Of a stretch of DNA of 64,000 bases, positions 950-61,379 are shown one piece after another. How positions within the stretch are numbered: the first letter of the stretch is position 1; every line of letters begins with the position of its first letter. This stretch comes from a candidate division WOR-3 bacterium (GTDB lineage: Bacteria > Hydrothermota > Hydrothermia > Hydrothermales > JAJRUZ01). The stretch spans positions 2,719 to 66,718 of the forward strand of contig JBDRZP010000007.1 in the NCBI GenBank assembly GCA_039804025.1. Reading direction: 5' to 3'. The notes beneath the pieces were generated by a model. That model did not search any database. It was given only the letters and a program-made list of their open reading frames with translations, and was not told where the DNA came from. Made by a program: the position numbers and the translations under genes.

Positions 950-962
950 AAGGTTCAAATCC
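950..962 (+). promoter_or_regulatory. upstream stem-loop motif AAGGTTCAAATCC, 21 nt before the ATG of 984..1496
   Basis: read directly from sequence; one of at least 9 instances of the same T-arm-like motif at constant distance from start codons. Confidence 0.45.
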
Positions 963-983
963 TAAAAAATAGAAAGAAAAAAA

Positions 984-1496
984 ATGGATTTTGGAAAAAT
1001 AATTGAAAAAGCTCTTTCAATTTTACAATTAAAAGAAGATGTAATAAAGGAAGTATCTGAAAAACCTGAATATTTAAATTTTTCAATTTTAATTGTTGCT
1101 ATTGCGGGACTTGCAAGTTCAATTGGTTCTTTTAAGTTTATTCCAGGTATAATCACTGGTCCAATTGTTGCTGTGATTGGATTTTTTATTTGGGTTGGAA
1201 TATTGTGGATTATTGCAAAAATCTTCGGTGGTAAAGGAAATTACCTCTCTTACTTTAAACCTCTTGCAATGTCTGATATAATTCAATGGGTAACAGTTAT
1301 ACCTTTTATAGGCTCTTTTCTTGGTGCCATTGCCTTAATATGGATGGTAATTGTTGCCATAAAGGTAACACAGATTGTTCATGAACTTGATCTTCCTAAA
1401 GCAGTTCTTGTTGTTCTAATACCGATTGGTGTAGTCTTCTTCCTGTTTCTTCTTTTTGGGGCTGCAGCCCTTGCTGTAATTGGAATGAGAGGATAA
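984..1496 (+). CDS. Yip1-domain-like small polytopic membrane protein
   Basis: 170 aa; hydrophilic N-terminus followed by 4-5 hydrophobic helices, the layout of Yip1/YIF1-type proteins. Confidence 0.45.
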   Translation: MDFGKIIEKALSILQLKEDVIKEVSEKPEYLNFSILIVAIAGLASSIGSFKFIPGIITGPIVAVIGFFIWVGILWIIAKIFGGKGNYLSYFKPLAMSDIIQWVTVIPFIGSFLGAIALIWMVIVAIKVTQIVHELDLPKAVLVVLIPIGVVFFLFLLFGAAALAVIGMRG

Positions 1497-1505
1497 AAAT
1501 CTTAA

Positions 1506-2855
1506 TCAAGAATAAAAGAAATTTTAACTAAATTTGAAAATAAATTATTAAGAGATAAAGATTTATTAATCAAATATTCTGAGGACGAATCACCGGTTAA
1601 GGGTAAAATACCAGAATTTGTATTTCTTCCTCAAAAAGTAGAAGAAGTCTCTGAATTTATTAAATACTGCTTTAAGTATAAAATTCCAATAACACCAAGA
1701 GGAGGGGGAACAGGTCTTTCAGGTGGTGCTGTTCCTTTAAAAGGTGGTGTTATATCCTTTGAAAGGATGAATAAAATTATTGATATTGACGAAATAAATC
1801 AATATGTGGTCCTTGAGCCTGGTGTAATTACAGGGGAAATTAATAAAGTTCTTAAATCCTTTGATCTTTTTTATCCACCTGATCCAATGAGTCTTGATTC
1901 ATGTACCATTGGTGGTAATGTTGCAACAAACGCAGGGGGTCCTAAGGCTTATAAATATGGTGTTACATCAAATTACCTTCTTGAACTGGAATGTGTATTT
2001 CCAAATGGGAAAGTAGAAACAATAGGTAAAAGAACAAGAAAATGGAAGGCTGGTTACAACCTATTGAATTTCTTATGTGGTTCTGAAGGAACACTTGCAT
2101 TATTTACAAAGATTACTCTTAAGGTAATTCCAAAACCTGAAAAAGAGATTCTTATAATGCTTGGATTTGAAGAAAATAATAAACTTTTTGAGTTTGTAAA
2201 AAAAATTATCAAAAATAAATTTTTCCCTTCAGTAATTGAATTTATGGATAAAAGTTGTTTTAATTTAGTAAAAGAGAAAATTAAAAATTTTTTCCAAATA
2301 GAAAGTTCTATACTCTTTATCAGTTTTGAAGGAGGGGAAAAAGATATAGAAAAGATTATTGAAAGATTTTATTTACTAACGGAAAAAGAAAAGATAAATA
2401 ACATTTTTGTAGGAGATGATAAAAATACTATTGAAAGAATGTGGAATATAAGAAAAAATATGTTTTATGAAACAGAAAAAATGGGTTTTAAAGTTCATTC
2501 AGAGGATGCAGGGATAACATTAACAAAAGCTATAGAATTTATTGAGGATATAAAAAAAATTCTTAAGGATTATAATAAAGAAGGTTATATATTCGGTCAT
2601 CTTGGTGATGGGAATATACATATAAATTTGACTTATAAAATGGATGAAAAAGGGTTGATTAAGGAAATTTCAAAAATTATATGGAATCTCATAATAAAAT
2701 ATGGTGGGACAATAACTGCAGAGCATGGAATAGGTTATTTAAAAAAGGAAGGGTTTAAAAGAGAAATATCACCTTTTTTATACAGAATTCATAAAGATAT
2801 TAAAAAAATTTTTGACCCAAAAGGCATTTTGAACCCGGGAAAAATTTTTTACTAA
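1506..2855 (+). CDS. FAD-linked oxidase (glycolate oxidase subunit GlcD / D-lactate dehydrogenase family). Track ORF starts at ATG 1767, but the FAD-binding domain is encoded in frame upstream from about 1506 with no ATG/GTG/TTG
   Basis: Upstream in-frame translation reads ...PVKGKIPEFVFLPQKVEEVSEFIKYCFKYKIPITPRGGGTGLSGGAVPLKGGVISFERM, the FAD-binding PCMH signature, joining MNKIIDIDEINQYVVLEPGV... C-terminal FAD-oxidase_C-like region; total about 449 aa, typical of GlcD. Confidence 0.6.
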   Translation, partial: SRIKEILTKFENKLLRDKDLLIKYSEDESPVKGKIPEFVFLPQKVEEVSEFIKYCFKYKIPITPRGGGTGLSGGAVPLKGGVISFERMNKIIDIDEINQYVVLEPGVITGEINKVLKSFDLFYPPDPMSLDSCTIGGNVATNAGGPKAYKYGVTSNYLLELECVFPNGKVETIGKRTRKWKAGYNLLNFLCGSEGTLALFTKITLKVIPKPEKEILIMLGFEENNKLFEFVKKIIKNKFFPSVIEFMDKSCFNLVKEKIKNFFQIESSILFISFEGGEKDIEKIIERFYLLTEKEKINNIFVGDDKNTIERMWNIRKNMFYETEKMGFKVHSEDAGITLTKAIEFIEDIKKILKDYNKEGYIFGHLGDGNIHINLTYKMDEKGLIKEISKIIWNLIIKYGGTITAEHGIGYLKKEGFKREISPFLYRIHKDIKKIFDPKGILNPGKIFY

Positions 2856-2901
2856 ATTTTAACTCAAATTATAGAATAAAAGTTTATTTAAAGATTTAAA
2901 A

Positions 2902-2935
2902 GGGGAAAAGGAGAATAATACTCTCCCCTCCCCCT
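2902..2935. terminator. putative bidirectional terminator hairpin (GGAGA-ataatac-TCTCC inside a G/C-rich extended stem) between convergent genes
   Basis: inverted repeat at 2910-2926 with flanking GGGG/CCCC arms, followed by a T-rich stretch; lies between the + gene ending 2855 and the - gene ending 2953. Confidence 0.4.
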
Positions 2936-2952
2936 GTTATATATCTCCTTAA

Positions 2953-4200
2953 TTACACCCAGCCTCTTAATTTCATTCCTTCCACCACTCTTCTCACTGC
3001 CACAGCGTATGCAGCAGTTCTGGGGTCAACATTAAATTCTTTCATAGCATCCCAGACAGCATTAAAGGACTTTGTCATTTTTGTATCAAGTCTCGAATAA
3101 ACCTCTTCCTCTTCCCAGTAAAACCCAGTAATATTCTGAACCCATTCAAAGTAAGAAACAGTAACACCACCTGCATTAGCAAGAAAATCAGGTAAAAATA
3201 AAATATTTTTCTTGTGCAAAATTTCATCAGCTTCAGGAGTAACAGGTCCATTTGCAAGCTCTAAAATTATTTTAGCCTTTATTTTATTTGCATTTTCTTC
3301 TGTTATCACTTCCTCAAGTGCTGCTGGAATAAGAATATCCACATCCAGTTCAAGAAGCTCCTCATTTGTTATTTTTTCACTTCCTTTAAAACCTACTACA
3401 GAACCTGTTTTATTTTTATGTTCAAAAACTTCCTCAAAGGGAAGTCCTTTCTTGTTTAAAATTCCACCTTTTGAATCGCTGACAGCAATAACTTTTGTTC
3501 CGAACATTTCTGTTATAAGTTTGTGGGCAAAGTATCCTGCATTTCCGTATCCCTGAATTGCACAGGTTGCTTTTTTAAGGTCTATCCCGAGTTTTTTAGC
3601 AGCTTCTCTCAATACATACATACCACCTCTTGCAGTAGCATCATTTCTTCCAACAGAACCACCTATTCTTAAAGGTTTCCCGGTAATTACCCCAGGGGCA
3701 TTATACTGTCTTATTTTACTGAATTCATCCATCATCCAAGCCATTATCTGGGGATTTGTGTAAACATCAGGAGCAGGAATATCCTTTTCAGGTCCTATTA
3801 CCTGGGCTATAGCTCTTATATATCCTCTTGAAAGTTCTTCCAGTTCCCTTTGAGACATTTCTTTTGGATTACATACAACACCACCCTTTCCCCCACCATA
3901 AGGTAAATCCATAAGTGCTGTTTTCCATGTCATCCAGGCTGCAAGTGCTCTAACAGTATCAATAGTTTCCTCAGGATGGAATCTTATACCACCCTTTGTT
4001 GGGCCAAGAGCATCATTATACTGAACCCTGAACCCTCTAAATACCTTAACAGTTCCATTATCCATTTTTACAGGTATAGAAACATGTATTTCCCGCATAG
4101 GCCACCTTAGCATCTCGTGAACATGAGGCTCAAGTTTTAAAACTTGGGCAGCTTTATCAAGCTGCTCCTGAGCAACTTCAAAGGGATTTTTTTTAGCCAT
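2953..4200 (-). CDS. gdhA: NAD(P)-dependent glutamate dehydrogenase
   Basis: 415 aa; catalytic GGGKGG motif, Rossmann IQGYGNAGY, overall Glu/Leu/Phe/Val dehydrogenase family layout. Confidence 0.9.
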
Positions 4201-4233
4201 TTTTAGTCCTCCAATTGTTATTTTTAAATTTTA

Positions 4234-4246
4234 GGGGATTTAACCC
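4234..4246 (-). promoter_or_regulatory. variant of the upstream stem-loop motif (GGGTTAAATCCCC on the minus strand), 33 nt upstream of the gdhA start
   Basis: read directly; one nucleotide shorter loop and longer spacing than the other instances. Confidence 0.25.
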
Positions 4247-4313
4247 TCCTCCTTTTTAAATTAATTATATAATAACTTTACAAATTCAGTCAAATAATTT
4301 AAAATATAATTAT

Positions 4314-4326
4314 AAGGTTCAAGTCC
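4314..4326 (+). promoter_or_regulatory. upstream stem-loop motif AAGGTTCAAGTCC, 23 nt before the ATG at 4350
   Basis: read directly; preceded by TATAAT at 4305-4310 and followed by SD GAGGT. Confidence 0.45.
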
Positions 4327-4349
4327 CTTTTTAAAAAAGAGGTTAAAAA

Positions 4350-4529
4350 ATGAACATTTCAAAAATAATTTTTATACTTTCCCTTATTACTTTTATAATA
4401 GCAATTGTTTTAAAACTTACAGGCACTGAATTCCCTCATCTTTTTAAACCTTATACCTACCTGAAAGGGACCTGGACATTACTTTTATTTTCTATTAGTT
4501 ACCATTTGATTTTTGAAAAGGGGAAATAA
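4350..4529 (+). CDS. small hydrophobic membrane protein (59 aa), below the ORF-track length cutoff
   Basis: ATG with SD (AAGAGGTtaaaaaATG) and the conserved upstream motif; translation MNISKIIFILSLITFIIAIVLKLTGTEFPHLF... has one clear TM helix. Confidence 0.4.
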   Translation: MNISKIIFILSLITFIIAIVLKLTGTEFPHLFKPYTYLKGTWTLLLFSISYHLIFEKGK

Positions 4530-4556
4530 AAGGGAAAAATATTTTAAAATATATAT

Positions 4557-4955
4557 GTGAATAAAGACACTTTAATTTTAGGTGTTGAAGAATTTGTTGA
4601 ATTACAGAAATTGCTTGATGATTTTACATACAGAGCAAACACACATTCTTCAATGCTTTCTACCCTTTCAGGACAATTACTTGTTTCTTCAGGTTTTAAA
4701 ACTCCCTTTAATCTACTTGCCATATCAGCATTACTTGCAGGGATTTTTCAAAGCACAAGAGAATTGGCAAGAATAATAGGAGAAAAAAATTTTGTAACTT
4801 TTTTTCAGGAAGGTAATAGCTGGAATATATATTACACCCTGGTTGGGGAAGACCTGCTCCTTACCACCTTTTTTGATGATAGAACTATACTGGGAATGGT
4901 AGAAGTTCAGGCAAAAAAACTTGCAAAAAAGATAAATGAACTTTTGAAAAAATGA
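4557..4955 (+). CDS. roadblock/LC7 (MglB-like) domain protein
   Basis: 132 aa; size and pattern (LILGVEEF...LAISALLAGIF...GNSWNIYYTLVGEDLLLTTFFD) fit the roadblock/LC7 fold; first gene of a coupled operon. Confidence 0.5.
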   Translation: MNKDTLILGVEEFVELQKLLDDFTYRANTHSSMLSTLSGQLLVSSGFKTPFNLLAISALLAGIFQSTRELARIIGEKNFVTFFQEGNSWNIYYTLVGEDLLLTTFFDDRTILGMVEVQAKKLAKKINELLKK

Positions 4956-11717: not shown

Positions 11718-11754
11718 ATTTGAAATTAGGAATTCAAAAATAGTATAAATAAAC

Positions 11755-14755: not shown

Positions 14756-14768
14756 GGAATAGAACCTT
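14756..14768 (-). promoter_or_regulatory. upstream stem-loop motif (minus-strand AAGGTTCTATTCC), 23 nt upstream of the start at 14732
   Basis: read directly; in a divergent intergenic region shared with the 14816 instance. Confidence 0.45.
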
Positions 14769-14815
14769 TAAAAAGCAGTATATTATAATAACTTATGAAG
14801 ATTTTTTTTTCAATT

Positions 14816-14828
14816 AAGGTTCAAATCC
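14816..14828 (+). promoter_or_regulatory. upstream stem-loop motif AAGGTTCAAATCC, 24 nt before the ATG at 14853
   Basis: read directly; identical 13-mer to the 950 instance. Confidence 0.45.
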
Positions 14829-14852
14829 TCTTATTAAAAAGAAGGGTAAAAA

Positions 14853-15884
14853 ATGATTAGAATAGATGAACTTACAAGAGAAGGAGAGCTGTATGAGGTT
14901 TTAGACAACAAAAAAGTAAGATGTTATGCCTGTGCCCATAAATGTGTTATATTTGAGGGTAAAAGGGGAATCTGCCAGGTTAGATTTAACATTGATGGAA
15001 AACTTTATGTTCCTTTTAATTATGTTTCAGGACTTCAAAATGATCCTATTGAAAAAAAACCCTTTTTTCATTTTTTACCAGGTTCTTATGCTTTAACCTT
15101 TGGTATGCTTGGTTGTGACTTTCACTGTCCGTATTGCCAAAACTGGATAACATCACAAGCTTTTAAAGATGAAAGAGCTATCCTTTATTATGAGGAAATA
15201 ACACCGGAAGAGATAGTAAAAATAGCACTTTTAAAGGGTTCAAAAAGTATAATTTCTTCCTATAATGAACCACTTATAACAACAGAATGGGCAAAGGAAA
15301 TTTTTAAATTAGCAAAAGAAAAAGGTCTTAAAACAGGTTATGTTTCTAATGGTTATGTAACTGATGAGGTTTTGGATTATCTTACCGGTTTAATTGATGC
15401 CTATAAAATTGATCTAAAAAGTTTTAAAGAAGAAAATTACAGGATTTTAGGTGGAAAACTTAAATATGTTCTTGAAGGGATTGAAAAAGTTTTTAAAAGG
15501 GGATTATGGCTTGAAATTGTCACACTTATTGTTCCCGATTACAATGATTCTGAAGAGGAATTAAGAGAGATTGCAAAGTTTATTAAAAGTTTATCACCTT
15601 TTATTCCATGGCATGTTACTGCCTTTCATCCTGATTATAAAATGCAAGATCGTGATAGAACCTCTGTTAGAAAAATAATAAGAGCAAGGGAAATTGGACT
15701 TGAAGAGGGTCTTAAATTTGTATATGGAGGAAATGTTTGGGGTTTTCCTGAAATTGAAAGCACCTATTGTCCTTCTTGTGGAGAAATGCTTATTAAAAGG
15801 GAAATATTTCTTGTTTTAGAAAATAAAATTAAAAATGGGAAATGCCCAAAATGTAAAACTGAAATTAAAGGAATATGGAATTAA
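14853..15884 (+). CDS. radical SAM enzyme, AmmeMemoRadiSam-system (AmrS) / PFL-activase-like family
   Basis: N-terminal Cys cluster RCYACAHKCVIFEGKRGICQVR followed by radical SAM CDFHCPYC (Cx3Cx2C) motif; 343 aa. Confidence 0.65.
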   Translation: MIRIDELTREGELYEVLDNKKVRCYACAHKCVIFEGKRGICQVRFNIDGKLYVPFNYVSGLQNDPIEKKPFFHFLPGSYALTFGMLGCDFHCPYCQNWITSQAFKDERAILYYEEITPEEIVKIALLKGSKSIISSYNEPLITTEWAKEIFKLAKEKGLKTGYVSNGYVTDEVLDYLTGLIDAYKIDLKSFKEENYRILGGKLKYVLEGIEKVFKRGLWLEIVTLIVPDYNDSEEELREIAKFIKSLSPFIPWHVTAFHPDYKMQDRDRTSVRKIIRAREIGLEEGLKFVYGGNVWGFPEIESTYCPSCGEMLIKREIFLVLENKIKNGKCPKCKTEIKGIWN

Positions 15885-16843: not shown

Positions 16844-17664
16844 AAAAATTTAAGGAATCTCTTTCAATAAATATAAGAGCAATATTAGCAAGAGCCTATG
16901 TTAGAATAGTTGCAACCCACAGGGAAGGTTCTTGGATTTTTTTATATGGTTTAACAGGTCTTATTTCAATAGCCTCCTACATTTTTTTATACAGAAATCT
17001 TGGAGCAAAAAAGGTATTTGAAGGATTTGTTATAATAGGTGGTTTTGTTTTAGCTTTCTGGATAAATGTTTTATGGAGTATAGCCTCACAGCTATACTGG
17101 GAAAAACTTTCAGGTAATTTAAGATACTTTATAATAGCACCTTGTTCAAAAATGTCAATTTTAATTGGAATGTCAATAGGTGGAATTTATATGATTTTAT
17201 TCAGATCTATATTTATTCTTTTTACTGCTTTTATAATTTTTAAAACACCATTAAAACTTTTTAATCCTTTTCTTGCAATTTTAACATTTTTTATTACTCT
17301 TTTTGGACTCTATGGGCTTGGTATGTCTTTTTCTTCTTTATATCTGCTATGGGGAAGGGAGGCTTGGCACTTATCTAATCTCTTTCAAGAGCCTGTTTAT
17401 GCAATTTCTGGTTTATATTATCCGATAAAAGTTTTACCAATTTTTATTATTTTTGTAGCTTCTCTTATCCCCCTTACCCTTGGTCTTGATGCTATGAGGC
17501 ATGCTTTTTTCGGAAAAGAAGCAGAGGGAATTTTAAACATTTATATTGAAATTTTAATACTTACAATTTTATCAGTGATTTTTCTTTTACTTTCTTACTA
17601 TGCTTTAATAAAGATGGAAACAATAGCAAGAAAATGGGGAACACTTATTGAGAGATGGCAATAG
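16840..17664 (+). CDS. ABC-2 family transporter permease
   Basis: 274 aa, 6 predicted TM helices, ATGA-coupled to the ATPase gene. Confidence 0.6.
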   Translation: MKKFKESLSINIRAILARAYVRIVATHREGSWIFLYGLTGLISIASYIFLYRNLGAKKVFEGFVIIGGFVLAFWINVLWSIASQLYWEKLSGNLRYFIIAPCSKMSILIGMSIGGIYMILFRSIFILFTAFIIFKTPLKLFNPFLAILTFFITLFGLYGLGMSFSSLYLLWGREAWHLSNLFQEPVYAISGLYYPIKVLPIFIIFVASLIPLTLGLDAMRHAFFGKEAEGILNIYIEILILTILSVIFLLLSYYALIKMETIARKWGTLIERWQ

Positions 17665-18482
17665 TAAGATTTCTTTACTCTTCTTTTCTATTAGCTTTCA
17701 AGGTTGAATCAAACTGGACAAGACCTTTCTGGTTTTTCTTTTATCATGCAATAAGACCCTTTTCTACAGTTATTCTGGTTTTATTCATGTATAAGGCTAT
17801 ACTTGGTTTTGATTTTGAAAATCCCTATTTCCCCTTTTTATATACTGGAACGGTTTTCTGGACTTTTATTCAGAATTCAATATTTGGAATTTCATGGAGT
17901 ATTCTCGGTGATAGGGAATTTTATCAGACTTTAAAGTATATGGTAACTTTACCTTTCCCCTATTCATTAAATTTATTTGGTAGATTCTTAGCCTATTTAG
18001 TTCTTTCAATATTTTCAGTGACAATTCTTTTATTAGCAGGAAAGATAATATTCAAAGTAAATTATTTAATTGGACCTTTATTTTTTATATATTTTTTTTC
18101 AGCAATACCATTATTTTTCTCATCAGGTTTACTTTTTTCATCTCTTTTACTTATTTATCCCAGGTATGCTTTTTTTATTCAGGAACTCTTTTCAGGAGTA
18201 TTGTTTTTAATTTCAGGAGTTATTTATCCTGTTAAAATTCTTCCTTATCCCTTAAATCTAATTGCAGCATATTCACCTGTTACAATATGGCTTGATGGTT
18301 TGAGGAAAAGCCTTGGATTAAAGCTTTTTTCCCAGGAGATTTTTAATCCTGAAAATGTTTCCTTTATTTTTATATTTTTCTTATTTTCTTTTTTCTTTTC
18401 CATTATCTCAATTTACCTTTTTAATCTCTCGGAAAATATGGCAAGGAAAAAGGGGCTCCTTGAAGAAACAACAGGCGGTTGA
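17655..18482 (+). CDS. ABC-2 family transporter permease (second subunit)
   Basis: 275 aa polytopic protein overlapping the upstream permease gene. Confidence 0.6.
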   Translation: MAIVRFLYSSFLLAFKVESNWTRPFWFFFYHAIRPFSTVILVLFMYKAILGFDFENPYFPFLYTGTVFWTFIQNSIFGISWSILGDREFYQTLKYMVTLPFPYSLNLFGRFLAYLVLSIFSVTILLLAGKIIFKVNYLIGPLFFIYFFSAIPLFFSSGLLFSSLLLIYPRYAFFIQELFSGVLFLISGVIYPVKILPYPLNLIAAYSPVTIWLDGLRKSLGLKLFSQEIFNPENVSFIFIFFLFSFFFSIISIYLFNLSENMARKKGLLEETTGG

Positions 18483-19376: not shown

Positions 19377-19390
19377 AGGGTCTAATTCCC
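19377..19390 (+). promoter_or_regulatory. upstream stem-loop motif AGGGTCTAATTCCC, 20 nt before the ATG at 19411
   Basis: read directly; AGGG/CCCT stem with a 7-nt loop. Confidence 0.4.
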
Positions 19391-19410
19391 TTAAAAATAT
19401 CATAAATATT

Positions 19411-22044
19411 ATGAATTTTTTATTTTTATTCTTTTTTATATCTCAAATGAGTGAAGGTTTAAAAATAAACTTTCATACAGCAAGTTTTGAGCCAATTACT
19501 GAAGGTGTCCCTATATTCTCTTCTCAGTTGGATGGGAATTTTAATCCAGGTTTAAATTATGTAGTTATACAGTTTTCAGAAATCCCGACTCCAGAAGAAA
19601 GAAAAAATATTGGTGCAAGTTATGGTATTAAATTTACTCCCTGGTATATCCATGAGAATGCTTTTATTGTAAGTTTCGTTTCAGACAACCCATTAAAAAA
19701 GATAGAAGAAATAAAGGAAATAAGAAATGTGCGAAGTGTCTTTCTTTACAAACCAGCTTTTAAATTTACGAAAGATGCCTGGGAACTATTTACTACACAA
19801 CCTGATTTAAGAGACAAATTTTATGTTCAGGTTTTTCACGATTCTTTACTAATGGATGCTGTAAATCAGGTTATCAATCTTGGAGGTGAAATATTATTCA
19901 TCGGAAAAAGAGATTTAGAAGAGGCAAAACATCTTGCAAGATTTGGATTTATAATAGAAGCAGGGAAACTCGCACAGATTGCAAATAATAGTGGAGTTTT
20001 TGTTATCGGAAGATTATATGAAAAGAATGTTTTTAATGATGCTTCAAGATGGGTAATTCAGACAAATCTCTCAGTTGATACATCTATATGGGCTCGTGGA
20101 ATTAGAGGTGAGGGAGTTATAATAGGGCATAATGACAACGGACTTGACCCAAACCATTGTTTCTTTAATGGAACTATAGACGGTCAGCCAAAAATTGTAA
20201 GACTTTTTGATTATAACGGTGGAGGTTTTGCAAACGGGGATCATGGAACTCATACTGCAGGAAGTGCACTTGGTGGAACTGATCAGCAGAGCACAAATAA
20301 ACAATATAAAGGAATGGCTAAAAGGGCAAGACTTGTATCACAGGAACCATTAGCTCCTGACCCTCCTGGCTTTTACAGTGTCCTTCTTGACGCATATAGT
20401 GAAGGAGCAAGAATACATACAAATAGTTGGGGTTATCAATGTAATGCTATTTTAAATTATTGTGGAACAGGTGGATACGAATTAGAGGCTCTTGATATTG
20501 ATAATTTTGTATGGAATTATATTGATATGACCGTATTTTTTGCAGCAGCAAATGGTGGAGATTGTGTATCCCCTTGGACTTGTGGAAATGTAAGAAGAAT
20601 ATCCTGTCCTGCAACTGCAAAAAATGATATAACAGTTGTTGCAACAAGAAGAGCAAACAATCAGGAATATAAGACAACATGGAGTTCCTTTGGGGCACCG
20701 AATAATCGTGGTGATTACAGGTTTGGAACGGATTTAACTGCCCCTGGTGAGAATGTCAACTCTGCTGATAATAATACAGCATGTGGTATTGTTCAAATGT
20801 CAGGGACATCAATGGCAACTCCAACAGCAGCAGGGGCAGGAGCACTTGTTGTTCAATATTATAAAGAAGGATGGTATGGAAACGGAACAAAGAACTCTGC
20901 ACCTTCATGGAATCCCTCATCAGCACTTGTAAGGGCTACTCTTTTAGCATCTTGTAGGGATATGCTTTATGATGTTGATGATGATGAGTATGGACCAGCA
21001 AATTCAGGAGTCCCAAATATTTATGAGGGTGCAGGAAGAATAACTCTTGAAGATGCTTTGTGGTTTGGTGAGACAAGAAAACTTGCCTTTGTTGATGGTG
21101 ACTTACCATACGGAGATAATCAGTTTAATACTGGTGATTCAATTGTTTACACAATAAATGTTCTTGGAAGCTCTATACCATTAATAATTATTCTTTCATG
21201 GATTGATTATGTGGGGACAGCAAATACATATCCAGTTATAGTTAATAACCTAAATTTAAAGGTGGTTGATCCTTCCGGAAACACATATAAGGGGAATGTT
21301 ACATCCAATGGATGGTCTGTTCCAAATACTGGCTCTTTTGATGCACTTAATACCTGGGAACTCTTCAAATTACAGAACCCTTCAACAGGGGAATGGAAAA
21401 TAATAGTTAAAGGTGCTAATATACCTCAGCCCAAGCCTGCAGGAATAAAATATCCTTTTGCAATTGTTGTCACAGGTAATTTTGACCAAATTTCAAAACT
21501 TGGAACTACTGAAAGTTTTCTTATTCTCTCTTCTTTAAAAGAAGGGATTCTTTTAAATCTTAACTTCTTTGAAAAAATTTCAGAAATTTTGATCTTTAAA
21601 AAGGAAGAAAAAGAGAAAAACTTCTCCCTTATTTTAAAAGAAGAAAACCCTTTAGCACCCTACAGATTTGTTGATAGGAATGTAAAAATCGGGAATACTT
21701 ATGAATATAAAGTGATGGTAATTTCAGGAAGCGGAAATCAGTGGTTTGGTCCAGTTTCAATAAAGTATGATTACTTAACAAGTGAAATCAAAGCTTTTTC
21801 ACAAATTTCCGGTTCAAAACTTAAGTTAAATCTATACCTTGAAGAAGAGGACGAAATAGAACTCTATCTTAAAGACCCCTCTGGTAGAAATGTTAAAAAG
21901 ATTCTTGAAAATAGATTTTCAAAAGGAAACCACTCCTTAGTTTTTGACCTTTCAAATTACAGAATACCAAGCGGAATTTATTTTCTGAATATTAAAGGTA
22001 AAAGTGGAATTGATTTCAAGATTAAAATAAGTGTTTTATACTAA
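19411..22044 (+). CDS. secreted S8 subtilisin-like serine protease with T9SS-type C-terminal sorting domain
   Basis: signal-peptide-like N-terminus; catalytic blocks GDHGTHTAGS (His) and MSGTSMATP (Ser); C-terminal ~80 aa (ELYLKDPSGRNVKKIL...GIYFLNIKGKSGIDFKIKISVLY) matches the Por/T9SS CTD pattern. Confidence 0.8.
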   Translation: MNFLFLFFFISQMSEGLKINFHTASFEPITEGVPIFSSQLDGNFNPGLNYVVIQFSEIPTPEERKNIGASYGIKFTPWYIHENAFIVSFVSDNPLKKIEEIKEIRNVRSVFLYKPAFKFTKDAWELFTTQPDLRDKFYVQVFHDSLLMDAVNQVINLGGEILFIGKRDLEEAKHLARFGFIIEAGKLAQIANNSGVFVIGRLYEKNVFNDASRWVIQTNLSVDTSIWARGIRGEGVIIGHNDNGLDPNHCFFNGTIDGQPKIVRLFDYNGGGFANGDHGTHTAGSALGGTDQQSTNKQYKGMAKRARLVSQEPLAPDPPGFYSVLLDAYSEGARIHTNSWGYQCNAILNYCGTGGYELEALDIDNFVWNYIDMTVFFAAANGGDCVSPWTCGNVRRISCPATAKNDITVVATRRANNQEYKTTWSSFGAPNNRGDYRFGTDLTAPGENVNSADNNTACGIVQMSGTSMATPTAAGAGALVVQYYKEGWYGNGTKNSAPSWNPSSALVRATLLASCRDMLYDVDDDEYGPANSGVPNIYEGAGRITLEDALWFGETRKLAFVDGDLPYGDNQFNTGDSIVYTINVLGSSIPLIIILSWIDYVGTANTYPVIVNNLNLKVVDPSGNTYKGNVTSNGWSVPNTGSFDALNTWELFKLQNPSTGEWKIIVKGANIPQPKPAGIKYPFAIVVTGNFDQISKLGTTESFLILSSLKEGILLNLNFFEKISEILIFKKEEKEKNFSLILKEENPLAPYRFVDRNVKIGNTYEYKVMVISGSGNQWFGPVSIKYDYLTSEIKAFSQISGSKLKLNLYLEEEDEIELYLKDPSGRNVKKILENRFSKGNHSLVFDLSNYRIPSGIYFLNIKGKSGIDFKIKISVLY

Positions 22045-28689: not shown

Positions 28690-29166
28690 TTATCTAATGA
28701 ATTTTAGAAAGGTAAAAAATATTATAGTCATAACACCTATCTGTCCTACCCAGAATATAAACATCCATTTTATTATGTTCGCATAAGTTTTTGAAATTTT
28801 TTCATTAAATTCAACTCTTAATTTTGAAATCTCCTCAGTAATTCTTTTATCAATTTTTGCAGTTTCCTCAGTTATCCTTTTATCAAGTCTTGCACTTTCT
28901 TCAGTTATCCTTTTATCAAGTCTTGCGATATCTTCAGATTTTAATTTGTTAATCTCTTCAGTTATCCTTTTATCAAGTCTTGAGATATCTTCGGCTCTTA
29001 ATTTATTAATCTCTTCAGTTAATCTCCTTTCATATTTTTCAGTCTGTAGCTCAATTAAATCAATTTTCAGTTTTTCATTAGAGGCATTTAAAAGCTCAAT
29101 TAATGCATCAACCCCATCTTCCCCAAGCTTCTCCCTTAAAACCTTTGGAATAGTTATTATTTTCAT
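28690..29166 (-). CDS. tail-anchored coiled-coil protein with RLDKRITEExxKL 11-aa repeats and C-terminal TM helix
   Basis: 158 aa; repeats encoded by 33-nt DNA tandem repeats; C-terminal KWMFIFWVGQIGVMTIIFFTFLKFI hydrophobic anchor. Confidence 0.5.
   Translation of the reverse strand: MKIITIPKVLREKLGEDGVDALIELLNASNEKLKIDLIELQTEKYERRLTEEINKLRAEDISRLDKRITEEINKLKSEDIARLDKRITEESARLDKRITEETAKIDKRITEEISKLRVEFNEKISKTYANIIKWMFIFWVGQIGVMTIIFFTFLKFIR
28835..29030. repeat. 5-6 tandem copies of a 33-nt unit (cagttatccttttatcaagtcttgc...) inside the 28690..29166 gene
   Basis: read directly. Confidence 0.8.
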
Positions 29167-34825: not shown

Positions 34826-35012
34826 TAAAAAGAAAATTTTTATTTTTTATTTCCTCTACAAGATAAGGATAAATTTCAAGAAAAAAGGAAAAGGGTAGAA
34901 AAGGTGAAAGTCCAAGAAGCGGAGAAAAAGTAATCATTAAAAAAACTTTTTCTCTCTCGTATAACTCCTTTTTTATTTTAGAAAACAAAAATTTTTTAAA
35001 AGGATTTTTCAT
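34779..35012 (-). CDS. small hypothetical protein (77 aa) overlapping both neighbours
   Basis: ORF-track only; overlaps the ArsA-like start by 47 nt and cstA start by 17 nt; may be spurious. Confidence 0.15.
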   Translation of the reverse strand: MKNPFKKFLFSKIKKELYEREKVFLMITFSPLLGLSPFLPFSFFLEIYPYLVEEIKNKNFLFNDDPFSEVFGFFDIS

Positions 35013-36693
35013 TTAAAGACTTATAAAAATTAATAAATAAAATTGAATTTAAATAAAGCATCACTAAGATCATAATAGCAATAAGAATTTTTTGATATAA
35101 ATTCATAACATGTGAAGAAACAAAAGGAATAACATAAAATAAATACCATAGAAAAGCAAGAGTTACAGTTAACCAGAGAAAAAGGGAGGGCACAAGAATT
35201 AATAATTTAAGAGTGCCTTTTATTTTTAAAATTTTTATAACCCAGAGAGAAATAGTCAAAAGAGCTACAGAAGCTAAAAGCTGGTTTGCTCCACCAAAGG
35301 ATGGCCATAATAAAGACCATGAACCCTGTATCGCAAGAAAAAACCCTAAAAGAACAGGTATAGAGGAAAGGAGATACTTATTTTGTAATTTAGCAAAGAA
35401 AGTTTTTTTAAGTGTTATAGGCTCCATAAGCTCCTTTAAAATATACCTTGCAATTCTACCACAAGTATCGAGTGTCGTAGTTGCAAAAGATGAAACCCAT
35501 AAAGATGCAAAAATAAGTATAATTTTTTCAGAAACAAAATTAAAAGAAGAATTAACAGCTTTTGCGTAACTTTTTGCAAATATTCCTATTGGACCACCAA
35601 TTTTAACAATTTCTGAAAGATAATCCTTACCAACATTTATTTCACCAATTAAATTTAAACCAAAAAGACCTATTACAAGAACAACAACAGTTGCAAGCAT
35701 TCCCTCTGTAAACATAGAACCCGCACCGACAAAGAGACCTGATGTTTCTTTATCCAGCTGTTTACTTGAAGTTCCTGAACAAACAAGACAGTGAAATCCT
35801 GATAAAGAACCACATGCAATAATTAAAGGAATTGTGGGCCAGAAAGGAGAATTTCTTCCCTCTATAGCAGGTGGTGAAAAACTTGTAAAAAATGGAAAAT
35901 TTATTGATTTGAAACTCAAAAAAACTGAAATCATACCTATAAATAAACCAATCCATAGAAACCAGGCATTTATATAATCTCTTGGCTGAAGCAAAACCCA
36001 TACAGGAAGTGAGGAAGCAAAAATAACATAAAGAGAAAGAAAAATTAACCACATTTTATAAGGTAAATTGAGTGGGAAAAGAAAGGAAATATAAAATAAA
36101 AAGGGCATTAAAAAAAGACCTACTATAGTAACAATAACATAATTGCCCCTTAAAATTCTCAAAAGATAACCCAAAAACACCGCAAGTATAGTAAATAAAA
36201 GAAAGGCAGTTGCAACCTCTGGCTGTTTTGTAAATAAATTTGAAATGATTGAAGAAAAAGCTGCAAGAACTAAAATAAGAACAAAAAGAACAAAAAAATT
36301 AAAGAGAATCTGGGTTCTTTCACCCATAAGTTTTCCAGCTATCCATTGAATTGATTTACCCTCATATCTTACACTTGCCATAAGGGAAAGATAATCATGA
36401 ACTTTACCAATAAAAACATTACCTATCCAAATCCATAAAAGAGGAAGACCATACCCCCATATCATAGCTATAGCAGGTCCTACAATAGGCCCAACACCTG
36501 CAATGGAAGCAAAGTGATGTCCAAAAAGAATAAGTTTAGGAGTAGGCACATAATCTACATCATCTCTCAGTTTGATAGCAGGAGTTTTGCTTTCTGGATC
36601 TGCTTTCACCACTTTCTTTTCGAGTATTTTCCCATAGGTAAAATAAAAAAATAGATAAATAAATCCACCGGTTAATAAAAGTAAAGTTGCCAT
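34996..36693 (-). CDS. cstA: carbon starvation protein A (peptide/pyruvate transporter family)
   Basis: LFGHHFASIAGVGPIVGPAIAMIWGYGLPLLWIWIGNVFIGKVHDY matches the CstA N-terminal signature. Confidence 0.85.
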   Translation of the reverse strand: MATLLLLTGGFIYLFFYFTYGKILEKKVVKADPESKTPAIKLRDDVDYVPTPKLILFGHHFASIAGVGPIVGPAIAMIWGYGLPLLWIWIGNVFIGKVHDYLSLMASVRYEGKSIQWIAGKLMGERTQILFNFFVLFVLILVLAAFSSIISNLFTKQPEVATAFLLFTILAVFLGYLLRILRGNYVIVTIVGLFLMPFLFYISFLFPLNLPYKMWLIFLSLYVIFASSLPVWVLLQPRDYINAWFLWIGLFIGMISVFLSFKSINFPFFTSFSPPAIEGRNSPFWPTIPLIIACGSLSGFHCLVCSGTSSKQLDKETSGLFVGAGSMFTEGMLATVVVLVIGLFGLNLIGEINVGKDYLSEIVKIGGPIGIFAKSYAKAVNSSFNFVSEKIILIFASLWVSSFATTTLDTCGRIARYILKELMEPITLKKTFFAKLQNKYLLSSIPVLLGFFLAIQGSWSLLWPSFGGANQLLASVALLTISLWVIKILKIKGTLKLLILVPSLFLWLTVTLAFLWYLFYVIPFVSSHVMNLYQKILIAIMILVMLYLNSILFINFYKSLNEKSF

Positions 36694-42167: not shown

Positions 42168-42180
42168 GGATTTGAACCCC
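42168..42180 (-). promoter_or_regulatory. upstream stem-loop motif (minus-strand GGGGTTCAAATCC), 23 nt upstream of the nuoM start
   Basis: read directly. Confidence 0.45.
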
Positions 42181-43871: not shown

Positions 43872-44327
43872 TTAAACTTTTTTTATTATTTTATATATAT
43901 TTCCGAGACAACAGGAACCTTGCGGGTTTCTTAAATCGCAAGCACACTGTTTTAGCTTTATTCCTGTATTTATATCCTCAATAATTTCTTTTTCTCTCTT
44001 TTCCTTTACCATAGAAAGAATTTCACCGAGAGTATGATTAAAACAGTAACAAACAGGAACAAAAGGGTTTTCTGGCTCTTTTTGATAAACAGGGACTTTT
44101 ACATCTTCGGTTTTAAATACATCATCAGAAGAATTATAATAAACGATAGGACAATTTTCAGTTTCACAGAAAAAATAAGATTCTGAAGGAAATATTCTTC
44201 TCAAAGAGACTTTCAAAAGGGACTTTAAAGTTTTTAGATTCACCTTTTTACCAGGTTTTCCACAGAAAGGACAATTAGTATTTTCTTTTATTATGTCACC
44301 TTTCTCACATTGAATGCACTTATCCAT
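43872..44327 (-). CDS. Cys-rich putative metal-binding protein with N-terminal zinc-ribbon (CxxC...CxxC)
   Basis: CIQC...CPFC, CETENC, CYC, CAC, CC clusters in 151 aa. Confidence 0.4.
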   Translation of the reverse strand: MDKCIQCEKGDIIKENTNCPFCGKPGKKVNLKTLKSLLKVSLRRIFPSESYFFCETENCPIVYYNSSDDVFKTEDVKVPVYQKEPENPFVPVCYCFNHTLGEILSMVKEKREKEIIEDINTGIKLKQCACDLRNPQGSCCLGNIYKIIKKV

Positions 44328-51331: not shown

Positions 51332-51385
51332 GGATGGTAATTATAAAATTAGAAAAAAAGCAAAAACAAATAAAAGTTTGAAAAA

Positions 51386-54074: not shown

Positions 54075-54098
54075 ATAATGGGTTCTTTATAAAGATAA

Positions 54099-55856: not shown

Positions 55857-55958
55857 AAGTTTTCCTCCTTTATTTTTATTAAATAAAATTTATTATAATC
55901 TTTTTGTATTTTAAAGTTCAATTTTGAAAACAAGTTTAAAAATTTCTTATTTTAAAAT

Positions 55959-56894: not shown

Positions 56895-56996
56895 AAAATG
56901 TGATTTAAATCACTTGTAATTTTTAAAAAATCAATATATAATTAAAAATAACCATCTCTATAAGCTCCTAATTAGTTGGGGGGGTACTTAGAGATG

Positions 56997-57010
56997 AGGG
57001 TCCGAGTCCC
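56997..57010 (+). promoter_or_regulatory. upstream stem-loop motif AGGGTCCGAGTCCC, 22 nt before the ATG at 57032
   Basis: read directly; SD AGGAG lies between motif and ATG. Confidence 0.4.
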
Positions 57011-57031
57011 TATAAAATAAAGGAGTTTAGT

Positions 57032-58861
57032 ATGTATAAATTAATTCCAATGATCTTATTCGCAGTATTTCTCCTGGGATTCACGGAGAAAGAAATCACA
57101 GGGGAAGTTGTAATACAAAATCCTGTAAAAAAAGAAAATATCAAACTCCCACAGAACTTCAACCCTGAAAGTGCTGAGAGGGAACTCATAAATGCAAGAG
57201 AATCTGGAAATAAAGAACTCGCTGGTGAGTTATCGAAATATATACATGAATGGTGGAAGATGAATAGAAAGGAAAACTACTCCCCGATAACCTGTGGGGA
57301 TAACCCTGAACCAGGTAAAAATTTAAAGGAAGAAAATTCAAACTTTAACCAGAATATTCTGAGATGGGGAAATGATGTGAGAATTGATCCAAGAAATGGA
57401 GTAAACGATGTTAAAATAACCTCCCTTTCAACAGGTGAACTCTATACAATTTCGAAATTTTTTGATGGGACAAATTACCGTGTTATAGTTCACAGATCCA
57501 CTGATAATGGAGAAACATGGAATATTTATTGGGATAATACTTTTTCAACAGGGTATAGCATCACTTCACCCGGCATCTTAGCAGTTAATGATACCCTTGT
57601 TTTATGGTACATTTTAATCCAAAACGATACTCTCTATAGAACATGGTTTATCACTGCTTTACCAGGAAATTCTTTCAATCCTATATCCTTTGGTTCTCCC
57701 ACAGGAGGATTTAATGACAATGTCCAATATTGGAATCTTGATTTCAAAACAGATGCACCTCATTACGGTTTATATGAATATAACTATGCAACCTGGGTTG
57801 AATATTATTATGTAGGAACGGATTCAACAAGTGTGATGTTTGCAAGATCAAATGAACTTAATGTCTCAAACTGGGAATTAGGTCCTGTTAAGGTAATGAA
57901 AACCTCCGGGGATAATATATATTATTATCACTCTAAAATTTCTTTTGGTGACCCTCATAGACTATGGATTATTGGACCCTTACATCCATACGGGTATCCC
58001 AATATTTATGATGAGACTATCGGGGGTGTTTATAGTGATGACTATGGGTCTTCCTGGACCCCAAGCAACCCATTTAATCCATTATGGATAACTCCTTTCA
58101 ATGACCATTACGATGATTTTGAGTGTGATTTAGCTGCATCCTATATTGATTCAAACTGGGTAATTTTAGTTACAAGAACAGATACAGGCATACTTCATTT
58201 TCAAGACCTAAATCTTTACAACTACTATTCAAAAAATGGAGGGAATACATGGAATTTTCAGGGATGGGTAATGCCTGATCTTAATTTTAGTCCTGATGTT
58301 TATGTTGATAATTCAAGCACTGCCTTTTATGCTGTTTTCAGAAAGAATATCCCTTCAGGCCCATATGAAGAAGTAAGACTTAAAATAGGTAATATAAATG
58401 ACCCCTCATCCTGGACTGGTTCATATCTTAATATAATAAACGATGATAGTACTGACAACTTAAGTGATGACTTTGGGTCCTATGTAAGTTATAACCCTTC
58501 CACAAATGAGCCTGTTGTGGTATGGACAAGTTTTGAAGGTTTTACTTACAGTATATGGTTTGATGCTCAAACAAGAGTTAAAATTTCTGAAAAAATCATA
58601 AATGAAGAAAATGAAACCACACTTATACCGAGTATTGGGAAAAATAATTTAAAAATTTTCTTCTACATACCATCCCCTTCAAATGTTAAACTGAATATCT
58701 ATTCCCCTGATGGAAGAATTGTAAAAAATATTCTTAACTCAAAACTTAATAAAGGTAATTACACTTATAACATAAGAAACACATTGAAAAATGGCAAATA
58801 CTTTCTAAAACTTGAAACTGAGAATACAAAAGTTTCTATACCCTTAATCATTGTTAAATAA
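57032..58861 (+). CDS. secreted BNR-repeat (sialidase/glycosidase-like) protein with T9SS-type C-terminal sorting domain
   Basis: signal peptide; BNR motifs STDNGETW, SKNGGNTW, DDYGSSWT; C-terminus NVKLNIYSPDGRIVKNIL...GKYFLKLETENTKVSIPLIIVK matches the T9SS CTD. Confidence 0.65.
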   Translation: MYKLIPMILFAVFLLGFTEKEITGEVVIQNPVKKENIKLPQNFNPESAERELINARESGNKELAGELSKYIHEWWKMNRKENYSPITCGDNPEPGKNLKEENSNFNQNILRWGNDVRIDPRNGVNDVKITSLSTGELYTISKFFDGTNYRVIVHRSTDNGETWNIYWDNTFSTGYSITSPGILAVNDTLVLWYILIQNDTLYRTWFITALPGNSFNPISFGSPTGGFNDNVQYWNLDFKTDAPHYGLYEYNYATWVEYYYVGTDSTSVMFARSNELNVSNWELGPVKVMKTSGDNIYYYHSKISFGDPHRLWIIGPLHPYGYPNIYDETIGGVYSDDYGSSWTPSNPFNPLWITPFNDHYDDFECDLAASYIDSNWVILVTRTDTGILHFQDLNLYNYYSKNGGNTWNFQGWVMPDLNFSPDVYVDNSSTAFYAVFRKNIPSGPYEEVRLKIGNINDPSSWTGSYLNIINDDSTDNLSDDFGSYVSYNPSTNEPVVVWTSFEGFTYSIWFDAQTRVKISEKIINEENETTLIPSIGKNNLKIFFYIPSPSNVKLNIYSPDGRIVKNILNSKLNKGNYTYNIRNTLKNGKYFLKLETENTKVSIPLIIVK

Positions 58862-58892
58862 TTTTTTAGATTTACTCTGAAAAAATATAGGG

Positions 58893-58920
58893 GGGAGGTG
58901 GTTTAAAAACTATCTCCCCT
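58893..58920. terminator. putative bidirectional terminator hairpin (GGGGAG...CTCCCC) followed by T-run, between convergent genes
   Basis: inverted repeat at 58893-58920 then tcttttatttt. Confidence 0.4.
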
Positions 58921-58923
58921 CTT

Positions 58924-60219: not shown

Positions 60220-60233
60220 AAAAATCCCCTCCT

Positions 60234-61349
60234 TTATAAAACAGGATAACCTTCACTCCACGGATGTTTCCTTGTAAATTTTCCCTTAAAAGTATAACAA
60301 CCATTCCATAGAGCTTTATTTTCTTTTATATAATCAATTCCATTTTTAACAATTTCTTTTAAATATGGAATTAAAGCATTGGAAAGAGCATGTGAAGCAG
60401 TTCTTGCTACAAAAGAAGGAACATTAGGAACACAAAAATGAATCACACCGAATTCTTTGTAAACAAAACTTTCTGTTGGTGTAAGTCTTGATGTCTCACA
60501 TGCACCTCCCTGGTCTATAGAAAAATCAATTATAACAGAACCGCTTCTCATAGATTTAACCATATCCCTTGTAACAATCTTCGGGGTTTTCTCTCCTGGA
60601 ACAAGAATTGCTAAGATAAGAACGTCAGCAAATTTAACAAATTTAGAAATATTTTCGTAAGTTGCAATAGCAGTAACTACTCTTCCACCGAAAATTTCAT
60701 CAACTTTTTCAAGTTTATTTTTTGAAATATCAAGCATATAAACCGAAGCTCCCAATCCAAGAAAAGACCTTGCAGCATAAGTTCCAAGTGTTCCGGAACC
60801 TATTATAACAACATCAGCAGGAGGTATCCCTGGAATACCACCTAAAAGAATTCCAAGCCCACCCCTTTCTGTTTCAAGCAATCTACCTGCAATCTGGGGA
60901 GCGAGTTTACCGGCTATTTCACTCGAAACCCTTAAAATTGGTAAAGTTCCATCCTCTTCCTGAATTATTTCGTAACCAATAGATGTAATCTTCTTTTCAA
61001 CAAAGGCATCATATATATTTTTTGGTTTCACAGCAAGATGCAAAAATCCAAAAATGACATGGTTTTCTTTCAAAAGTGAAAGTTCACTTTCGAAAGGCTG
61101 GTTTATTCCTAAGATAATATCAGACCTTAAAAAAACTTCTTCCTTTGAATATACTATTTGGGCGCCTTTTTCCTTATACTCTTCATCAGTAAAACCAGCA
61201 CCTTCTCCTGCTTTGCTCTCTAAGTAAATTTCAGCTCCAAGATCAATTAACTCTTTACAGGCTGAAGGAGAAAGAGGCACTCTTTTTTCATAAATATTAC
61301 CCTCTCTTTCCGATAAGGGAATACCTATTATTATTCTATCCATAAACAC
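60234..61349 (-). CDS. ald: alanine dehydrogenase (GTG start at 61349; ATG at 61343 more likely the true start)
   Basis: collinear with Ald: IGIPLSEREGNIYEKRVPLSP..., VIIGSGTLGTYAARSFLGLGASVYMLD Rossmann; first codon in the track ORF is GTG. Confidence 0.85.
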   Translation of the reverse strand: MFMDRIIIGIPLSEREGNIYEKRVPLSPSACKELIDLGAEIYLESKAGEGAGFTDEEYKEKGAQIVYSKEEVFLRSDIILGINQPFESELSLLKENHVIFGFLHLAVKPKNIYDAFVEKKITSIGYEIIQEEDGTLPILRVSSEIAGKLAPQIAGRLLETERGGLGILLGGIPGIPPADVVIIGSGTLGTYAARSFLGLGASVYMLDISKNKLEKVDEIFGGRVVTAIATYENISKFVKFADVLILAILVPGEKTPKIVTRDMVKSMRSGSVIIDFSIDQGGACETSRLTPTESFVYKEFGVIHFCVPNVPSFVARTASHALSNALIPYLKEIVKNGIDYIKENKALWNGCYTFKGKFTRKHPWSEGYPVL

Positions 61350-61364
61350 CCTCCTTTAAAAAGA

Positions 61365-61379
61365 GGGGGTTGAACCCTC
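61365..61379 (-). promoter_or_regulatory. upstream stem-loop motif (minus-strand GAGGGTTCAACCCCC), 21 nt upstream of the ATG at 61343
   Basis: read directly; SD GGAGG between motif and ATG. Confidence 0.4.

Follow-up and report, generated by a model that had tools for sequence, protein, structure and literature searches.

A tRNA T-arm-like hairpin at a fixed distance before start codons in one bacterial family, and its possible role as a stand-in for the Shine-Dalgarno sequence

In a 64,000-nucleotide stretch of DNA (hereafter, the window) from a hot-spring bacterium of the order Hydrothermales/Caldifarciminales, in a group formerly called WOR-3/Hydrothermae, nine genes are preceded by a short hairpin that resembles the T-arm of transfer RNA (tRNA), and the same hairpin recurs before the start codons of many unrelated genes elsewhere in the genome. 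Its base-paired structure, position and orientation, its lineage restriction, its conservation at orthologous sites and its association with loss of the Shine-Dalgarno (SD) sequence can be read directly from the genomes that we compared. We tentatively propose, as a reading that falls somewhat short of an even chance, that the hairpin is a 5'-leader mimic of the T-arm that flags where the ribosome binds and takes the place of the SD; our statements on function are drawn from sequence.

The window belongs to a metagenome-assembled genome (MAG; here G000) of 2.12 Mb in 47 contigs, with a GC content of 29.9% and 48 tRNA plus transfer-messenger RNA (tmRNA) genes. This genome was scanned with the loose pattern GGT[TC]NNANNCC, counting matches outside tRNA and tmRNA genes; gene starts were called by a simple longest open reading frame (ORF) rule and then refined by means of the hairpin and ortholog alignment, and all distances run from the last C of the hairpin core to the start codon. 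For approximately 200 of the 478 loose matches, an ORF of at least 60 amino acids starts 12-34 nt further on, with a sharp peak at 20-23 nt (mode 21 nt); the 180-200 or so genes concerned are all in the orientation of their hairpin. A strict pattern gives 151 non-tRNA copies: 119 are followed, at 15-32 nt, by the start of an ORF of this kind, several others precede ORFs of 21-58 amino acids, 10 are antisense copies within called genes and 3 point towards the end of a gene. The exact 11-mer GGTTCAAATCC has 66 copies outside tRNAs, of which 1 is an antisense copy within a gene and 2 point towards the end of one. The pile-up before starts that the sequence-only reading of the window had anticipated from a genome-wide count is hence present.

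Overall, about 9-10% of all genes, and about 25-35% of those with an upstream spacer of 20-200 nt, carry the hairpin. In favor of a role in initiation, they include many highly expressed genes that still have to be initiated efficiently (rpsL, tuf, rplL, rpoB, rpoA, rpsO, rpsT, rpsU, rpmE/F/I, infC for IF3, efp for EF-P, frr for RRF, groES, cspA, the gene for HU, ftsZ, dnaA, and dnaN). Copies also occur within operons, e.g., in the 40-nt spacer between rpsD and rpoA, between rplL and rpoB, and at the junction before tuf, and 74 of 178 copies are found between same-strand genes less than 60 nt apart. At two sites in G000, C3:98478 (-) and C37:208 (+), the hairpin is joined to another one built in part from its 3' arm (…AUCCCGAAC..AGGGAU…), with the start codon 35-45 nt away; these leaders may represent a composite variant.

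The consensus of the element is R-GG-UUCAAWU-CC-Y, a 3-bp stem closing a 7-nt loop, and covariation of the third pair, which flanks GG and CC, establishes that the motif is a base-paired hairpin. Among 181 copies tabulated, this pair is A:T in 57 and G:C in 67; it is Watson-Crick in 135 of 178 copies compared to 66.7 ± 6.2 by permutation (z = 11; mutual information, 0.67 bit), the signal falls when the partner column is slid, and outer pairs are weakly enriched. As the copies represent independent loci, this figure is not inflated by shared ancestry. The asymmetry between G:U and A:C pairs was uninformative, in this AT-rich background, as a pointer to the transcribed strand. Stems among the 178 copies measure 2 bp (35 copies), 3 bp (64), 4 bp (34), 5 bp (26) or more (19). 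When only GG-N7-CC was searched near starts, the excess was specific to 7-nt loops, the leading ones being UUCAAAU (47), UUCAAUU (20), UUCAAUC (9), and UUCUAAU (8), and at positions not forced by the search pattern C occupies position 56 (tRNA numbering) in 85% and A occupies position 57 in 71% of copies. UUCAAAU is also the commonest T-loop of the genome's own tRNAs, 19 of whose genes hold the same 11-mer. The hairpin accordingly has the features of a T-arm motif, namely a 7-nt loop closed by G:C, with U54, U55, C56, and A58, on a stem supported by covariation.

The covariation also bears on whether the motif might act as double-stranded DNA, e.g., as a promoter element, discriminator or transcription-factor site. 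Boxes resembling the -10 promoter hexamer adjoin the hairpin, GG...CC has partial dyad symmetry, and the 11-mer is the box B promoter of eukaryotic tRNA genes; to our knowledge, box B has no counterpart in bacteria. Independent half-sites would not yield the observed alternation between A:T and G:C, however, RNA contigs contain the motif, and copies are found in 20-60 nt spacers of conserved operons. The sequence around the copies shows no fixed-position signal upstream or downstream, the flanks being AT-rich and unrelated. We regard a DNA signal as highly improbable, and a sigma-70-type promoter element in particular was rejected given the lack of a flanking positional signal, the covariation and the operon-internal copies. 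An intrinsic terminator was likewise rejected, as stems are mostly 2-5 bp, two copies face outward in one divergent spacer and only 3 of the 151 strict copies stand at a gene end.

A further structural consideration is temperature. The 16S ribosomal RNA (rRNA) and the tRNAs of the window genome have GC contents of 61.8% and 62.5%, respectively, a thermophile signature in a genome of 30% GC, and DNA of this genome recurs in hot-spring metagenomes; together, these data point to a thermophilic host. A relative was obtained from a 75°C spring (PMC12297393). The mean predicted energy of the hairpin is -3.5 kcal/mol at 37°C and -0.25 kcal/mol at 75°C, a temperature at which 141 of 178 hairpins are predicted to be unfolded. 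In the nine leaders of the window, the hairpin is the minimum-energy fold in only two, and folding z-scores are near zero. At growth temperature, a hairpin this weak could hardly serve as a simple barrier, which speaks for its recognition by a partner.

Comparisons across the phylum show that the element is restricted to one bacterial family. The exact 11-mer has 44-100 copies in each of five genomes, from two genera, of the window's family, compared to 2-20 copies in 115 other genomes of the phylum, including the sister family, which corresponds to the tRNA background. We compared G000 with a genome from the second genus of its family (G005) and with one from the sister family in the same order (G006); the portions sampled were 348 kb (15%) of G005 and 1.19 Mb (57%) of G006. 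A hairpin of the same form and at the same distance is present in G005, while in G006 5 of 1165 genes match, which equals background, and no substitute motif was found at the equivalent position there, only SD k-mers being enriched. Among orthologs of G000 and G005, the hairpin occurs in both genomes in 21 cases, in G005 only in 4 and in G000 only in none; among those of G000 and G006, it occurs in G000 only in 65 cases and in both in none. The copy before rpoA is kept in a second relative. With viral contigs, the matches listed comprised only phage tRNA genes and no phage with a hairpin signal.

When hairpins are compared between G000 and G005, the search pattern itself imposes identity at two stem pairs, U54, and A58, so information comes from the free positions alone. 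Among these, the equivalent of C56, which was not forced, is identical in 90% of ortholog pairs, compared to 62%, 38%, and 52% for loop positions 57, 59, and 60, and 43-49% for the flanks. The third stem pair differs, in a compensatory manner, in 5 of the 14 ortholog pairs in which it is Watson-Crick in both genomes.

The lineage that gained the hairpin also differs from its sister family in its use of the SD. For ortholog pairs with aligned N-termini, and with an SD defined as a match of at least 5 nt, 29 of 33 genes that carry the hairpin in G000 have an SD in G006 (88%) versus 7 of 33 in G000 (21%), with 22 losses and no gains (exact p = 5e-7). Among 251 non-hairpin pairs, the SD is present in 39% in G006 and 32% in G000, with 42 losses and 25 gains. 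An SD present in G006 is hence missing in G000 for 76% of hairpin genes compared to 43% of others (Fisher p = 0.003). In the 64% of hairpin genes that have no SD, the hairpin lies 22.0 ± 3.0 nt from the ATG, compared to 24.5 ± 3.3 nt in those with an SD. While the distance to the ATG is tight even without an SD, that between hairpin and -10 box is broad (3-25 nt).

Many of the non-hairpin genes that lost an SD are now leaderless, which suggests a family-wide shift; the family appears to have moved away from SD-led initiation, with the hairpin leader as one of two putative replacements and leaderless initiation as the other. The leaderless signature, a TATAAT-like hexamer ending 5-7 nt before the ATG, is seen in 265 of the 1962 genes, an excess of about 180 over background (~9% of genes), compared to an excess of ~5% in G006, and several genes with an SD-led start in G006 have become leaderless in G000 (e.g., rpsP). 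Window genes with this signature are found at 34996-36693 (-), 28690-29166 (-), and 43872-44327 (-).

Among the hairpin leaders that retain an SD, 28 of 56 minimum-energy folds at 37°C pair the 3' arm of the hairpin (CCYUU) with the SD, so that the T-arm cannot form; examples in the window lie at 61337-61389 (-), 4304-4356 (+), and 14806-14858 (+). This pairing could represent a switch, in which a stabilized T-arm frees the SD, or it could be a trivial effect of CC/GG composition.

We propose the following mechanism. The leader hairpin copies the T-arm, with a closing pair of the G53:C61 type, next to it another G:C pair, a third pair that covaries, and the loop U-U-C-A/U-A-W-Y. In genes with their own promoter it would lie at, or a few bases past, the start of transcription, and it is also found in short operon spacers. 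Whichever the setting, 21-22 nt separate its end from the start codon, or 24-31 nt where an SD is kept, and it would form the 5' edge of the ribosome-binding site. The hairpin may then dock on the translation machinery, or on an attached T-arm-binding factor, such that the A-rich single strand past it is placed in the mRNA track of the 30S subunit and the start codon comes to lie in the P site; the hairpin would in this way replace SD pairing in the window's family. Both the identity of the partner, as ribosome or associated factor, and an effect on initiation are thus suggested rather than observed. A role at the start site is proposed because the constrained distance is that to the start codon, not that to the promoter, and the conserved positions are exactly those read by T-arm-binding factors.

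A bolder version of this proposal, which we consider distinctly unlikely, is that the hairpin represents a third bacterial start signal beside the SD and leaderless starts, i.e., that it imitates the tRNA elbow in cis and docks in a ribosomal T-arm-binding site. Candidate docks would be the L1 stalk/E-site region or an rRNA GG that pairs with the loop as G18-G19 of the D-loop do, and the 21-nt A-rich tether would measure the distance to the P-site codon. Such a signal would have had a single origin at the base of one thermophilic family, displacing the SD in about 180 genes.

The position of the hairpin relative to transcription starts brings in the main rival explanation, which is possible, if unlikely. 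Here, the hairpin would be a protective 5'-end or processing-site structure for mRNA stability, located at the 5' terminus of primary transcripts or of operon segments released by cleavage, which together with an adjoining ribosome denies RNase J, E, and Y single-stranded entry; the T-loop would be used since modification by the tRNA enzymes that form pseudouridine 55, m5U54, and m1A58 would render even a minimal hairpin heat-stable. At 3-25 nt upstream of the hairpin GG, there is an excess of TATAAT-like hexamers. Scored against the strict consensus, -10-like boxes occur in this interval in 72-79% of hairpin genes with room for a promoter (i.e., with a divergent neighbor or a gap of at least 60 nt), compared to 19-33% of controls, and end 3-13 nt upstream of GG in 50-55% compared to 8-19%; of the 74 copies in same-strand gaps of less than 60 nt, only 35% have such a box. 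As the leaderless class calibrates the -10 box at 5-7 nt, transcripts of genes with their own promoter are predicted to start at the stem or up to about 15 nt before it, which agrees with the stability model. The purines at -2/-1 likewise fit initiating nucleotides, and 5'-terminal stem-loops are generally known to stabilize the ompA, aprE, and ermC mRNAs.

RNA-library contigs from a related strain contribute to both sides of this question, with two window hairpins lying inside RNA-library assemblies. For gdhA, coverage runs from 2957 to 4252 and ends 5 nt upstream of the variant hairpin, as the stability model would have it, although a contig end is not proof of a transcript end; the leader of the subtilase gene is covered from 19306, 71 nt upstream of its hairpin, which speaks against that model, although a contig start is not proof of a transcript start either. 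Contigs encoding the 159-amino-acid protein of the window yielded no usable transcript ends. In two runs, RNA-library contigs join 12578/12582 to 18076/18077, skipping about 5.5 kb that includes the divergent spacer with two hairpins; with only 21-24 nt on the sides of the joint, the skip could reflect either a deletion in the strain or an artefact. Beyond the subtilase contig, the stability model is weakened by the fact that the constrained distance is from hairpin to ATG and not from transcription start to hairpin, as well as by stems that are mostly 2-4 bp and, for the most part, predicted to be unfolded at 75°C, with the near-zero z-scores of the window leaders; it also leaves the conserved loop letters and the extra SD loss unexplained.

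Several observations weigh against the hairpin as a stand-in for the SD. First, 36% of hairpin genes keep an SD, and loss of the SD is a general trend of the family, with many of the non-hairpin losses having become leaderless, so the association between hairpin and SD loss could be indirect. Second, the tight distance between hairpin and ATG can also fit the stability model, if a bound ribosome abuts the hairpin. Third, searches for a partner gave negative results. Nowhere in the 16S rRNA is there a complement of at least 6 nt to the hairpin motif or loop, and the 16S 3' end is canonical (CACCUCCUUUCU) with an unchanged anti-SD, such that a kissing loop or SD-like pairing with 16S was rejected. 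While the 16S rRNA carries 19 family-specific substitutions, those in the one region inspected, around helix 23, are helix-compensating, and no family-specific change was found in the 690 loop and no family-specific indels; a family-specific rRNA adaptation was therefore also rejected. Proteins with relevant activities (S1, TruB, TrmA-like, PUA, and tRNA-binding-domain proteins) have equal copy numbers in hairpin and non-hairpin families, and a T-arm-binding protein particular to the hairpin family was accordingly rejected. A CsaA/Trbp111-like stand-alone tRNA-binding-domain protein of 111 amino acids (L083:493-828; G000 C1:53392-53724) is present in G000 and G005, but it was dismissed as a partner because its distribution does not follow that of the hairpin: it was not found in the four other genomes, all hairpin-bearing, of the window's genus, and a family without hairpins has it. 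Differences in ortholog length between G000 and G006 were also dropped as a lead, since they are dominated by miscalled start codons.

The search for a partner also relates to a model in which the hairpin is an operator or substrate for a T-arm protein (e.g., TruB, the U54 methyltransferase, the m1A58 methyltransferase or another factor) that exerts global control over about 10% of genes, for instance through coupling to the free tRNA pool and not through ribosome recruitment. We judge this model very unlikely, though it could coexist with a role as a start-site mark. The genome encodes TruB and a TrmA-like enzyme, the conserved G53:C61, U54, U55, C56, A58, and 7-nt loop are known determinants of TruB and TrmA (PMC13492117), sites of the GUUCG type are pseudouridylated in bacterial mRNAs (PMC13236023), and the commonest loop is shared between hairpins and tRNAs. 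By contrast, TruB binds short stem-loops weakly, with a dissociation constant above 1 µM (PMC13492117), and both enzymes are single-copy and equally present in the hairpin-free sister family. Position 57, a purine in tRNAs, is U in about 17% of the hairpins, and modification alone cannot account for a fixed distance to the start codon.

Within the window, the nine instances listed by the sequence-only reading are all present at the positions given and run in the direction of the downstream gene. On the plus strand, a hairpin with a 3-bp stem and the loop UUCAAAU (AGGUUCAAAUCCU; 951..963, core 952-962) ends 21 nt before ATG 984 of a gene for a Yip1-domain protein, with no SD in the spacer, and a core with a 2-bp stem (GGUUCAAGUCC; 4316..4326) lies 23 nt before ATG 4350 of a gene for a 59-amino-acid membrane peptide, preceded by a TATAAT that ends 5 nt before GG. 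A variant on the minus strand (AGGGUUAAAUCCCCU; 4233..4247, core 4235-4245) has the loop UUAAAUC, without an equivalent of C56, and stands 34 nt before ATG 4200 of gdhA, with the SD GGAGGA in between. The divergent intergenic region described as holding one copy for each gene does so, with a minus-strand core of 2-bp stem (GGUUCUAUUCC; 14756..14766) 23 nt before ATG 14732 of a 159-amino-acid protein gene and a plus-strand hairpin of 3-bp stem (AGGUUCAAAUCCU; 14817..14829, core 14818-14828) 24 nt before ATG 14853 of a radical SAM gene. The subtilase gene (ATG 19411) and the gene for a 609-amino-acid secreted protein (ATG 57032), both on the plus strand, have hairpins with 4-bp stems at distances of 21 nt (AGGGUCUAAUUCCCU; 19377..19391, core 19379-19389) and 22 nt (AGGGUCCGAGUCCCU; 56997..57011, core 56999-57009), respectively. 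The remaining two copies are on the minus strand: a core of 2-bp stem (GGUUCAAAUCC; 42168..42178), with a TATAAT ending 6 nt before GG, lies 23 nt before ATG 42144 of a NuoM/Mrp-type antiporter subunit gene, and a hairpin of 5-bp stem with the loop UUCAACC (GAGGGUUCAACCCCCUC; 61363..61379, core 61366-61376), whose 3' arm could alternatively pair with the SD GGAGGG, lies 22 nt before ATG 61343 of the alanine dehydrogenase gene.

The distance to the start is 21-24 nt for eight copies and 34 nt for the variant before gdhA. Two details of the initial description need adjustment. Stems had been given as 4-5 bp, but measure 2-5 bp in the window, and the site had been placed just 5' of the SD, which applies to a minority of genes only. 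The proposal of a promoter-proximal or 5'-leader RNA element, as opposed to chance or mobile-element debris, gains support from the covariation, the genome-wide pile-up, the -10-like boxes and the RNA contigs over two window copies. An origin of the copies as chance matches, decayed tRNA genes or remnants of tRNA-derived mobile elements carries a negligible probability: although the sequence is identical to a tRNA T-arm and a few loose matches adjoin real tRNA genes, the 12-mer pattern of the sequence-only reading has 5 matches in the window compared to 0.09 expected from dinucleotide shuffles. As had been claimed, no tRNA can be folded around any copy; ARAGORN found no tRNA genes in the window, a search of Rfam gave no match that reached the gathering score, and the flanks are dissimilar, with no terminal repeats. 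Orientation and distance to the start are fixed, and copies are kept at orthologous sites while their flanks diverge.

Other features of the window were noted in passing. Cumulative GC skew over positions 1-64000 rises to about 20 kb and then falls, which coincides with a switch from plus- to minus-strand genes near 22 kb; dnaA is on a contig other than that of the window. Large secreted proteins encoded at 57032-58861 (+) and 19411-22044 (+) suggest a type IX-like secretion system (T9SS) in this lineage; the match of the former, the 609-amino-acid protein, to the Por_Secre_tail/T9SS sorting domain is weak (24.4 bits, below the cut-off of 27 bits). A T-rich low-complexity stretch at 18358-18405, inside the ORF 17655-18482, was flagged as a skipped repeat in read placement.

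How start sites are selected in bacteria that rely little on the SD is an open problem, and the lineage studied here appears to have swapped the SD at about 10% of its genes for one RNA module of 13-17 nt. If the hairpin does dock on the ribosome, it could be a new kind of signal. It would also be the first case of tRNA T-arm mimicry as a general signal in gene expression; our literature searches, by sequence, T-loop and SD, lineage, and conserved hairpins, found no published description of a T-arm-like hairpin before start codons. As the module is compact and mutable, it offers a direct test bed for SD-independent initiation or for a new mode of mRNA protection, and about 180 mRNA sites can be predicted as targets of tRNA-modifying enzymes. 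In annotating these MAGs, the hairpin helps to fix the true start codons and to locate small ORFs, and it may provide a short, portable expression element for thermophiles.

Among known elements, the tRNA T-arm itself shares with the hairpin the G53:C61-type closing pair, G52:C62, the loop U54-U55-C56-R57-A58-N-Y, and UUCAAAU as the commonest loop, whereas the hairpin is located in mRNA leaders, has no acceptor, D or anticodon arm and usually has a stem of 3 and not 5 bp. The t-elements and tRNA-like structures of plant mitochondria, mascRNA, and viruses also place tRNA mimicry in longer transcripts; however, these combine an acceptor stem with a T-arm and serve as substrates of RNase P or RNase Z, and the hairpin is too short for the known rulers of those enzymes. 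The mRNA targets of TRUB1/Pus4 and bacterial TruB (GUUCNANNC in a stem-loop) represent the same T-arm-like sequence and structure in mRNAs (PMC13492117, PMC13236023), but are scattered, without a fixed position or known role, while the window genome has about 180 copies at one position relative to the start.

The stabilizing stem-loops of ompA, aprE, and ermC are located at or near the 5' end of an mRNA, as is predicted for the hairpin in most genes with their own promoter, but they are stable and have neither conserved loops nor a fixed distance to the start codon. The SD-independent initiation of Bacteroidota, with its A-rich leaders, and leaderless initiation are paralleled in the window genome by low use of the SD (about 63-74% of genes have none, depending on the length threshold), A-rich spacers and many leaderless genes, although no conserved hairpin has been described for these modes. 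Like the SD, the hairpin is a short signal at a fixed distance before the starts of many unrelated genes, and the same genes use the SD in the sister family; unlike the SD, it lacks complementarity to 16S rRNA, is structured, is found in one family and is located at -22 to -35 and not at -6 to -13. Finally, the rpsO pseudoknot, the thrS operator and the tisB standby site are, like the hairpin, folded RNAs just upstream of the ribosome track, where they affect initiation; while these are gene-specific regulators, the hairpin is one motif shared by about 10% of genes.

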